NCBI RefSeq assembly: GCF_055900595.2
Contig: NZ_CM148325.1
DNA length: 64,000 bases
Strand: one strand, 5' to 3'
The position numbers and the translations under genes were made by a program. Of this stretch, positions 47,106 through 50,195 are shown one piece after another. The stretch's first letter is position 1; every line of letters starts with the position of its first letter. The notes under the pieces were generated by a model. The model was not told where the DNA came from, ran no database searches, and saw nothing but the letters and a program-made list of their open reading frames with translations.

Positions 47106-48479
47106 TTATTTTAATAACCGCACCCGGCACGTTTTTCCTTTAATCTTCCCGCCCTGTAACTGTTTCCATGCTTTATGAGCAACAGCCTGACGCACCGCAA
47201 CATAGACATGCGCCGGATGCACGGCGATTTTGCCAATATCTGCGCCATCAAGCCCGATATCTCCTGTCAGCGCACCTAATACATCACCCGGGCGCATTTT
47301 GGCTTTTTTCCCGCCATCGATACACAACGTTGCCATTTCTGCTTCCAGCGGCACAATGGAACTATTAACTGGCGGCGTTTGCCAGTTAAGTTTTATCTGC
47401 AACATGTCAGAAATGATATTGGCCCGCTGTGCTTCTTCCGGGGCACAGAAACTGATCGCCAGACCGCTATTTCCTGCACGCGCTGTACGACCGATGCGAT
47501 GTACATGAACTTCAGGATCCCACGCCAGTTCAAAGTTCACTACCAGCTCAAGCGATTTAATATCAAGACCACGCGCAGCAACATCCGTCGCGACCAGCAC
47601 ACGAGCGCTACCGTTAGCAAAACGTACCAGGGTCTGATCGCGGTCACGTTGCTCCAGATCGCCATGTAACGACAATGCACTTTGCCCTATGTCATTCAGC
47701 GCGTCGCAGACAGCCTGACAATCTTTTTTGGTATTGCAAAACACCACGCAAGAGGATGGCTGATGCAAACTTAATAACCGTTGCAACAGCGGAATTTTGC
47801 CTTTGCTGGATGTCTCATAAAATTGTTGTTCAATGGGAGGCAGAGCATCTGTTGAGTCAATTTCAATCGCCAATGGATCGCGTTGAACTCGTCCGCTGAT
47901 TGCGGTGATGGCTTCCGGCCAGGTTGCCGAAAACAGAAGCGTCTGTCGAGATGCTGGCGCAAAACGGATAACATCATCAATGGCATCGCTAAATCCCATA
48001 TCCAGCATGCGATCGGCTTCATCCATCACCAGCATATTCAACGCATCCAGTGATACCGTGCCTTTTTGCAGATGGTCCAGCAAACGACCTGGGGTTGCCA
48101 CGATAATATGCGGCGCATGTTGCAACGAATCACGCTGCATACCGAACGGTTGACCACCGCACAAAGTCAAAATTTTGGTATTTGGCAGAAAACGCGCCAG
48201 CCGACGCAATTCACCTGCCACCTGATCCGCCAGTTCACGCGTAGGACACAGCACTAAAGCCTGGGTCTGAAATAGCGACGCATCAATTTTCTGTAGCAGC
48301 CCGAGGCCAAAAGCCGCCGTTTTGCCGCTGCCGGTTTTCGCCTGCACGCGAACATCTTTTCCGGCAAGGATCGCCGGAAGCGCGGCGGCCTGCACCGGCG
48401 TCATAGTTAAATAACCCAACTCATTAAGGTTCGTGAGTTGGGCGGGAGGCAAAACATTCAGGGTAGAAAAAGCGGTCAC
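47106..48479 (-). CDS. dbpA: ATP-dependent RNA helicase DbpA (DEAD-box, 23S rRNA-specific)
   Basis: 457 aa; Q-motif, Walker A AKTGSGKT, DEAD box, C-terminal RNA-binding domain. Confidence 0.95.
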   Translation of the reverse strand: MTAFSTLNVLPPAQLTNLNELGYLTMTPVQAAALPAILAGKDVRVQAKTGSGKTAAFGLGLLQKIDASLFQTQALVLCPTRELADQVAGELRRLARFLPNTKILTLCGGQPFGMQRDSLQHAPHIIVATPGRLLDHLQKGTVSLDALNMLVMDEADRMLDMGFSDAIDDVIRFAPASRQTLLFSATWPEAITAISGRVQRDPLAIEIDSTDALPPIEQQFYETSSKGKIPLLQRLLSLHQPSSCVVFCNTKKDCQAVCDALNDIGQSALSLHGDLEQRDRDQTLVRFANGSARVLVATDVAARGLDIKSLELVVNFELAWDPEVHVHRIGRTARAGNSGLAISFCAPEEAQRANIISDMLQIKLNWQTPPVNSSIVPLEAEMATLCIDGGKKAKMRPGDVLGALTGDIGLDGADIGKIAVHPAHVYVAVRQAVAHKAWKQLQGGKIKGKTCRVRLLK

Positions 48480-48509
48480 AATCTGTTCTCGTGGTCATCG
48501 ACGCAAAAA

Positions 48510-48683
48510 TTAGCAAGCGCGTATCCTCGCAGATCTACGCTCACGATGCGACAATTTAATCGGTTCTTCATCGGGTGGTGGGTCAGGCATGGGTTGCGGG
48601 CGAGGGATTGGATCGGGCACTGGAACAGGATCGCCAGGAATCGGTTCAGGGACAGGAATTTGCAAATAAATGAGTGTCGTCAT
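48510..48683 (-). CDS. Candidate proline-rich small protein (57 codons) downstream of FnrS
   Basis: MTTLIYLQIPVPEPIPGDPVPVPDPIPRPQPMPDPPPDEEPIKLSHRERRSARIRAC; strong SD GGAGGG 5 nt upstream of ATG; below ORF-track cutoff; identity unverified. Confidence 0.4.
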   Translation of the reverse strand: MTTLIYLQIPVPEPIPGDPVPVPDPIPRPQPMPDPPPDEEPIKLSHRERRSARIRAC

Positions 48684-48736
48684 ATTTCCCTCCGGTCATT
48701 GGGTGGACTCTTAAAGGGTAGACGCTGATATATAAC

Positions 48737-48862
48737 AGGCAAAAAAAAGCCGACTCATCAAAGTCGGCGTCGTACGAATCAATTGTGCTATGCAGTAATT
48801 CAAAAAAGGAAGTAAGACAATATGGAGCGCAACGCCCATCGCTTGACGTTGCATTCACCTGC
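48737..48862 (-). ncRNA. fnrS: FnrS small RNA (FNR-activated anaerobic regulator)
   Basis: Minus-strand GCAGGTGAATGCAACGTCAAGCGATGGGCGTTGCGCTCCATATTGTCTTACTTCC...GCCGACTTTGATGAGTCGGCTTTTTTTT with intrinsic terminator. Confidence 0.88.
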
Positions 48863-48897
48863 GAGAGAGATATTGCCCTGAATGGGTAGAGAGTTTA

Positions 48898-48911
48898 TTG
48901 ACTTCGCTCAA
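48898..48911. promoter_or_regulatory. FNR binding site (class II, centred near -41.5) of the fnrS promoter
   Basis: TTGACTTCGCTCAA, close to TTGAT-N4-ATCAA, about 42 bp upstream of the FnrS 5' end. Confidence 0.75.
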
Positions 48912-48957
48912 ACTTTGCGGCGTTTTTGTATACAGATAGTAGGGAAAATTGCTGTTG

Positions 48958-49962
<1,005 letters not shown>

Positions 49963-50195
49963 TTATTTTGTAGTCTAGCCTTCTGGCCCTGTTACGCAAC
50001 ATCTCATCACCCCATTACCCTGAAATGATTAATAAAATTCTGTCTAAATTGAATACAAAAAGCAAAATGCTTTTCCATATACAAACCGTGTGAAGTGTTA
50101 AATAGCGTCTATCATTATCAGAATTATCTGATCATATGACGTGGCTTTTTTGCGATCGGATAGCAACAAAAATTGATAAAAATAACGGGATCTCA

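Follow-up and report, generated by a model that had tools for sequence, protein, structure and literature searches.

The 57-codon frame considered here lies on the minus strand of a 64,000-nt stretch of DNA (the window), immediately downstream of the small RNA FnrS and upstream of dbpA. In the direction of transcription, the locus comprises:

48958 to 49941, minus strand: zntB, the conserved neighbour upstream of FnrS-ynaL
48745 to 48862, minus strand: the sRNA FnrS (Rfam RF01796, 134.8 bits)
48688 to 48693, minus strand: Shine-Dalgarno sequence GGAGGG, 4 nt 5' of the ynaL ATG
48510 to 48683, minus strand: ynaL coding sequence, 57 codons, ATG start, TAA stop
47106 to 48479, minus strand: dbpA, encoding a DEAD-box helicase specific for 23S rRNA, with a GTG start at 48479, 30 nt past the ynaL stop

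The frame translates as MTTLIYLQIPVPEPIPGDPVPVPDPIPRPQPMPDPPPDEEPIKLSHRERRSARIRAC, the sequence quoted in the initial annotation, which had described a proline-rich product (16 of the 57 residues, 28%, are proline) encoded about 50 nt past the FnrS terminator and preceded by GGAGGG. The Shine-Dalgarno sequence is indeed there at a spacing of 4 nt, and the distance was roughly right, the end of the U-tract being separated from the ATG by 57 nt. A 57-codon ORF taken alone is within chance expectation, so that the reality of the gene rests on a protein family match, on the RefSeq annotation and on the coding signature across genera. The first of these is a match to Pfam PF23677 ('Protein YnaL-like') at 136.9 bits, where the gathering cutoff is 27 (E=2.1e-40), which covers the full length of the protein (residues 1-57 on profile positions 1-57). 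Furthermore, a 561-nt query spanning the locus finds a match in 5392 of 5426 complete E. coli genomes, and a ynaL CDS is annotated in RefSeq under the match in all 30 records sampled from the 5392, the product being named either "proline-rich small protein YnaL" or plain "protein YnaL". The ynaL CDS of a K-12-type genome (WP_001296046.1) is located between zntB and dbpA, on the dbpA side of FnrS, and the YnaL of the window is identical to this E. coli K-12 protein.

Exactly the same protein sequence, placed between fnrS and dbpA, has been reported previously, and K-12 YnaL carrying a chromosomal SPA tag has been detected by immunoblot in aerobic LB cultures; a ribosome-profiling screen with tetracycline had likewise scored YnaL as a positive, then unidentified (VanOrsdel 2018; PMC6001520). 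This is the only paper mentioning YnaL that was found in a literature search on its function. It is practically certain that the 57-codon frame is ynaL, and the ORF itself adds nothing new, being an already known, annotated and experimentally detected small protein. The suggestions that the protein is genuine and that its gene might be a recently annotated one are both borne out, the former by the Pfam match, the RefSeq CDS, the SPA immunoblot, and the coding signature across genera described below, and the latter by the RefSeq product name and the existence of a dedicated Pfam family; the ribosome-profiling signal that had been recommended as a check is likewise on record for ynaL.

Compared with K-12, the protein is the same and the DNA of the locus is ~97.3% identical; the Shine-Dalgarno sequence reads GGAGGG in the window and AGAGGG in K-12, and the window carries an additional T behind the ynaL stop codon (TAATTTTTGCG in the window, TAACTTTGCG in K-12). 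The region 48400-48960 is 100% identical to that of the canine E. coli isolate Z0117EC0005, and identity is at least 99% in only 15 of the 5392 matching genomes, suggesting that the window comes from an uncommon lineage. Six of the locus matches sit on records labelled plasmid. On the other side of zntB, 13 nt upstream of it, the window contains a 15-codon ORF (49955-50002, minus strand) identical to the RefSeq 'protein YnaN' of the K-12-type genome, a possible zntB leader peptide.

The comparative set consists of 30 loci (one genome per species) together with those of Klebsiella, Raoultella, Kosakonia and Leclercia, and of divergent loci added by means of the family profile (Phytobacter, Erwinia, one labelled Salmonella and an unclassified Enterobacter), altogether ~40 loci. 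The ynaL frame, a Shine-Dalgarno sequence and the ATG are present in every one of these, and all changes in length are in frame; thus, the frame remains intact from Escherichia to Erwinia, and the comparison with relatives does not refute the gene. The first 10-17 residues of YnaL are not conserved. The proline-rich part of the protein comprises:

48564 to 48647, minus strand: acidic proline-rich (xP)n core, codons 13-40, EPIPGDPVPVPDPIPRPQPMPDPPPDEE, under peptide-level selection and predicted to form an extended polyproline-II (PPII) rod
48573 to 48581, minus strand: PPP, codons 35-37, within DPPPD, conserved in most family members

Within this core (DPxPxPDPIPRPQPMPDPPPDEE), the amino acids are held while the codons drift freely. 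For 14 genus representatives, pS is 0.669 and pN 0.108 (ratio 0.16), with synonymous sites saturated, and the corresponding values for dbpA in the same genomes are 0.653 and 0.069 (ratio 0.106). When the columns are sorted by codon position, 9 of 23 first, 10 of 23 second and 23 of 23 third positions are variable (35 loci). The core is retained in Erwinia, Mixta and Phytobacter. Given the saturation of synonymous sites and the retention of the amino acids, the selection is on the peptide, that is, the YnaL core is under purifying selection on its amino-acid sequence. The repeat also varies in length. An 11-codon in-frame deletion, with the loss of PVPEPIPGDPV, is present in E. coli E69 (L009, CP089930.1, 2501-2638), and a Salmonella enterica allele found on 181 contigs (P0053) carries a 10-residue duplication, PDPRPHPQPM; these variants look like the outcome of repeat-mediated slippage with the frame kept.

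In all loci examined (~40), FnrS is located directly 5' of ynaL and on the same strand, and the order zntB-FnrS-ynaL is invariant; it is the gene 3' of ynaL that varies. Phytobacter diazotrophicus and Enterobacter sp. have a hairpin terminator behind ynaL and next to it a convergent ttcA, dbpA being absent there, and in Erwinia the order is ynaL-ttcA-dbpA. In Erwinia psidii (L037/L038; 629-877 and 2798-3694), ttcA is inverted between ynaL and dbpA, a rearrangement that amounts to a natural uncoupling of ynaL from dbpA; a fragment of an IS240-family transposase is found upstream of zntB in this species. The YnaL proteins of Phytobacter, Enterobacter sp., Erwinia, Kosakonia cowanii, Mixta and Scandinavium keep the core SDPxPTDPVPxPDPIPxPQPxPDPPP and end in …EEPIKLSR or …DPDPRPIVDPPPHR, not in …RSARIRAC. 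Given that the core is kept in these divergent taxa while the tail differs, the xP core is the selected part of YnaL. The RSARIRAC-type tail would be dispensable for the function of the protein because Kosakonia cowanii, Erwinia, Mixta and Phytobacter do without it, and we infer that the basic tail of the E. coli clade, IKLSH..RSARIRAC, mainly reflects the dbpA promoter carried by those codons.

The family is narrow, a set of 1.84 billion proteins containing 35 representatives of it at 50% identity, and the exact 57-aa YnaL is absent from a collection of 15 billion proteins, which shows that the gene is poorly called by gene callers. Several of the database entries are aberrant. One 'YnaL' (P0146) is called from an ATG inside FnrS (window 48711-48854, minus strand; MQRQAMGVALHIV...) and is a 106-aa artefact that runs through the sRNA and its terminator. 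In four relatives of 68-102 aa (P0123, P0132, P0133, P0135), the C-terminal halves turn to unrelated sequence; these look like frameshifted alleles or assembly errors, some of which read into the +1 frame at the ynaL 3' end. The top match of the YnaL profile in the representative library, P0121, is a protein of 1597 aa that matches in 20 separate stretches; presumably it is a long protein of xP repeats, and the match is compositional and does not reflect homology.

The 3' end of ynaL evolves in a different regime. The last 16 codons are frozen as nucleotides (pS 0-0.03), rare codons AGA, AGG and ATA included, with invariant runs of 9, 7 and 19 nt. In dbpA, used as the control, the longest invariant run is 5 nt, pS is at least 0.32 in every 7-codon window, and nucleotide-invariant codons account for 2.3% of the amino-acid-invariant ones. 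The frozen stretch consists of two blocks separated by three near-neutral codons (pS 0.56, pN 0.49), the length of which is fixed and the sequence variable:

48515 to 48564, minus strand: dbpA promoter region (-50 to -1), very likely so on the evidence of a published transcription start site (TSS) and nucleotide conservation, inside ynaL codons 41-57
48545 to 48563, minus strand: Block A, CCGATTAAATTGTCGCATC, pS 0.000
48517 to 48535, minus strand: Block B, GATCTGCGAGGATACGCGC, pS 0.025
48514, minus strand: equivalent of the dbpA TSS, the G of the Cys57 codon TGC, mapped from K-12; leader of 34-35 nt

Across loci, Block A reads CCGATTAAA[T/A]TGTCGCA. In K-12, a TSS at 1407501 (+), supported by 126 reads, has been assigned to dbpA with a 34-nt leader, and the "-50 + TSS" sequence given for it is ACCGATTAAATTGTCGCATCGTGAGCGTAGATCTGCGAGGATACGCGCCTG (Kim et al. 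2012, Table S1; PMC3415461). This published sequence corresponds to Block A, the variable stretch and Block B. Since the two blocks coincide with positions -50 to -1 of the mapped dbpA TSS, we read them as the dbpA promoter. Three further observations indicate that the blocks are an element of dbpA rather than a requirement of YnaL. First, at one locus (L039), ynaL stops early (…EEPIKLSR*), so that Block B and the inter-block stretch become non-coding and lie 3' of the stop, and nevertheless both blocks are conserved there and the spacing between them is unchanged. Second, Block B is present where dbpA directly follows ynaL and absent in 5 of the 5 loci where it does not. Third, in Erwinia psidii, with ttcA between ynaL and dbpA, the blocks are absent upstream of dbpA. 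It is therefore very likely that, in Enterobacteriaceae, the last ~50 nt of ynaL double as the dbpA promoter. Within Block B, the candidate promoter elements would be an extended -10, TGcGAGGAT (48523..48531), which matches the consensus poorly, and a GC-rich discriminator, ACGCGCC. RNA processing, rather than initiation, could in principle have produced the mapped 5' end. The level of DbpA has been found to be higher in exponential phase (PMC13393375).

Other explanations of the frozen 3' end were examined and rejected. For a conserved RNA structure or an attenuator located in the 3' end of ynaL and the leader of dbpA, RNAfold gives z-scores of -0.25 and +1.3, and RNAalifold detects no covariation. 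Mimicry of 23S rRNA by the invariant blocks (as a DbpA autoregulatory site; hairpin 92 region) yields no excess over 300 shuffles in local alignments to 23S and 16S rRNA on both strands. A CsrA site, proposed from sequence only (GGA in a GCG[AGGAUA]CGC hairpin), found nothing relevant to it in a literature search, and the published TSS explains Block B better. Upon manual inspection, sigma-E, sigma-28, sigma-54 and ArcA-like readings of the blocks all fail in spacing or in key bases. The extra T of the window gives rise to two further features that are not conserved elsewhere. One is a terminator-like hairpin with a T-run at the ynaL stop (48513-48530, minus strand), which was discarded because the T-run is specific to the window and absent in relatives. 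The other is a 31-codon ORF in the +1 frame (MKNRLNCRIV...; 48476-48571, minus strand), which the extra T puts in a GTGA stop/start overlap with dbpA; dual coding by this ORF was dismissed given that its ATG is gone in Salmonella and Pseudocitrobacter and the length of the gap ranges from 14 to 30 nt.

In charge, the two parts of YnaL are opposite, with a net charge of -6 in the core and +5 in the tail. The protein contains both PPP and PPD, established motifs at which ribosomes stall when EF-P is absent, and since translation has to pass DPPPD, EF-P dependence is expected. When run on the family alignment, AlphaFold2 assigns residues 21-40 a pLDDT of 91-93 and neither helix nor strand, with a pTM of 0.22; high confidence of this program on polyproline carries no information on function. 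The model thus predicts that the core is an extended PPII rod and not a globular fold. With three residues per PPII turn, V20, I26 and M32 would be aligned on one face of such a rod and D18, D24 and Q30 on another, as follows from its geometry. A search for relatives of YnaL among solved structures found none.

Expression of ynaL has to be considered against the background of the strong terminator that precedes it. The FnrS terminator is an 8-bp hairpin at 48749..48768 with a folding energy of -13.8 kcal/mol, followed by a U8 tract at 48741..48748 (minus strand). Between the terminator and the ynaL Shine-Dalgarno sequence, 36 of 40 loci contain a motif of the form TTGCnn-16/17 nt-TAnnnT in which the length of the spacer is fixed and its sequence variable. 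In the window, it is represented by:

48715 to 48742, minus strand: putative ynaL promoter, recognised by conservation only, with -35 TTGCCT at 48737..48742, a 16-nt spacer and -10 TACCCT at 48715..48720

The putative -35 overlaps the end of the FnrS terminator tail. The -10 is TACCCT in 31 of the 36 motif-bearing loci, the window included; the variants are TACGCT in Klebsiella and Raoultella, TATTTT in L039 and TATGCT in Erwinia, so that T1, A2 and T6 are always kept. A promoter scan calls the Erwinia version and misses that of the window, which falls below the threshold and agrees with the consensus at 7 of 12 positions. On balance, we are inclined to think that ynaL has a weak sigma-70-type promoter of its own. 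The 8-mer TCTACCCT occurs twice at the locus, in the putative -10 region (48715-48722, minus strand) and in codons 5-7 of dbpA (about 48459-48466, minus strand); this repeat is probably coincidental because other genera differ in the dbpA copy at a synonymous position (TCA ACC CT).

The alternative, which is the route proposed in the initial annotation, is that ynaL is promoterless and is expressed anaerobically by partial read-through of the FnrS terminator. YnaL would then be FNR-activated and anaerobically induced, and FnrS-ynaL would be a single transcription unit with two outputs. The position of FnrS directly upstream and on the same strand in ~40 of ~40 loci, even where the downstream gene changes, is in line with such an arrangement, as are the shortness of the gap between the FnrS U-tract and the ynaL ATG (57 nt) and the one K-12 TSS map consulted, which records no 5' end from the FnrS start up to that of dbpA (Kim et al. 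2012; PMC3415461). Opposed to it are the canonical terminator itself, with its 8 bp, -13.8 kcal/mol and U8, the conserved promoter-like motif at fixed spacing between this terminator and ynaL, and the detection of YnaL-SPA in aerobic LB. In addition, expression of dbpA in Shigella is 3.6-fold lower anaerobically and is not affected by FNR (PMC4229854). Since no conserved terminator separates ynaL from dbpA downstream, and dbpA expression falls anaerobically and independently of FNR, read-through from FnrS into ynaL cannot be strong; it is only strong read-through that is limited by this result because dbpA has its own promoter. The proposed anaerobic expression via read-through is thus left unsupported by the terminator, the promoter-like motif and the Shigella data, and partial read-through as the sole source of ynaL mRNA appears unlikely.

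More speculative still is an extended version of this scenario, in which FnrS-ynaL would be an ancient two-output module, present from Enterobacteriaceae to Erwiniaceae, that yields an FNR-driven sRNA by termination and, by read-through, an mRNA for a PPII rod whose synthesis is gated by EF-P; in the E. coli clade, the 3' end would also have been recruited to serve as promoter of dbpA. We consider this module rather improbable; should it exist, YnaL would be a so far unrecognised protein arm of the anaerobic FnrS response.

Taken together, the observations are best explained, in our judgment with good likelihood, by a real, translated ynaL that encodes an independent, trans-acting protein and the 3' end of which is the dbpA promoter. 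Under this explanation, ynaL would be an independent gene transcribed from its own weak sigma-70-type promoter, with the -35 overlapping the FnrS terminator tail. YnaL itself would act in trans via a rigid, acidic, amphipathic PPII rod of ~26 residues of alternating xP, one face of which would bear V, I and M, and its synthesis would depend on EF-P at DPPPD. In the E. coli clade, the 3' end of the gene would carry the dbpA promoter and thereby shape the basic tail. The trans-acting role as such is likely, although it is deduced only from selection and synteny.

A different role for the peptide would be that of a cis-acting leader ORF of dbpA, in which polyproline stalling (with EF-P or prolyl-tRNA limiting) or termination-reinitiation 30 nt before the GTG sets the synthesis of DbpA. 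In favour of this, only 23-30 nt separate ynaL from dbpA in Enterobacteriaceae (14 nt in Klebsiella and Raoultella). Translation of dbpA begins at GTG behind a weak Shine-Dalgarno sequence, and a small hairpin can cover both; in addition, YnaL contains the PPP and PPD motifs, and its conservation is confined to the last ~42 residues. However, transcription of the main dbpA mRNA begins only at codon 57 of ynaL, the final sense codon, so that the ORF is not in this mRNA. Neither a conserved terminator or antiterminator nor covariation is found, and the folding z-scores are the -0.25 and +1.3 given above. Moreover, residues other than proline are conserved too. Finally, Phytobacter and Enterobacter sp. 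keep ynaL with a terminator of its own and no downstream gene, and ttcA intervenes in Erwinia; given this retention of ynaL without an adjacent dbpA, a role as dbpA leader peptide cannot explain the family. Such a role is therefore highly improbable. That the frame is kept only through overlapping nucleotide elements (such as the dbpA promoter or a C-rich Rho-loading tract), with a functionless peptide, is scarcely credible: the 3' third of the ORF is constrained as DNA and the mRNA strand of the core is C-rich and G-poor (C 0.42, G 0.19), but the core has a pN/pS of 0.16 with 23 of 23 third positions variable, the Shine-Dalgarno sequence and ATG are conserved, all indels are in frame, and the protein accumulates in K-12.

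As an example of an uncharacterised small protein, YnaL is of value because its comparative signals are unusually clean, among them the amino-acid constraint on the predicted PPII core. Another is a C-terminus whose sequence is dictated by the dbpA promoter, and this calls for care in inferring function from the conserved tail or the rare codons of a small ORF. In addition, ynaL has been tied to FnrS for longer, and more closely, than to dbpA, and the comparative data steer attention to FnrS, anaerobiosis, FNR and EF-P, and away from DbpA, the association suggested in the literature.

Among known proteins, the proline-rich spacer of TonB, (EP)n(KP)n, resembles YnaL in being an alternating xP sequence predicted to form an extended PPII rod. 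The profile match is weak and limited to the spacer (NCBIfam E=2.9e-4, 20.8 bits against a cutoff of 315; Pfam TonB_N E=0.68), and TonB has an N-terminal transmembrane anchor and a C-terminal TonB domain, whereas YnaL, with its 57 aa, has neither, so that the likeness is compositional. Proline-rich antimicrobial peptides of the oncocin/Bac7 type are cationic, rich in Pro and Arg, and contain PRP motifs; YnaL was rejected as a member of this group given the net charge of -6 in its core and the restriction of basic residues to the tail.

The location of the dbpA TSS within ynaL follows the pattern of promoters inside the 3' end of an upstream CDS. In being GC-rich just before the TSS (ACGCGCC), the dbpA promoter resembles rRNA-type promoters (rrnB P1, -10/GCGCC), and the likeness extends to DbpA being a ribosome-assembly factor that is commoner in exponential phase; unlike in that class, the dbpA -10 fits the consensus poorly (TGc-GAGGAT), and the assignment is putative.

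By analogy with the mgtL/mgtP leader ORFs of Salmonella, ynaL is short, contains consecutive Pro codons and is located upstream of another gene. It differs from them in that alternative, mutually exclusive RNA structures and a conserved terminator are lacking, the dbpA promoter is inside the ORF, which places the ORF outside the main dbpA mRNA, and the ORF persists without a downstream gene. The IRA of the YnaL tail is shared with the SecM arrest peptide (...GIRAGP). Arrest peptides such as SecM and TnaC are nevertheless poor models for YnaL given that the IRA tail is absent from many family members: RSARIRAC is missing in Kosakonia cowanii, Erwinia, Mixta and Phytobacter, and where present, it is conserved as nucleotides, that is, as promoter. 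The dual-function sRNA loci SgrS/SgrT, Spot 42/SpfP and AzuCR likewise combine an sRNA and a small protein in one conserved locus and on one strand. Those sRNAs hold the ORF inside the sRNA itself, whereas ynaL starts 57 nt past the U-tract of the FnrS terminator, with a promoter-like motif in between.
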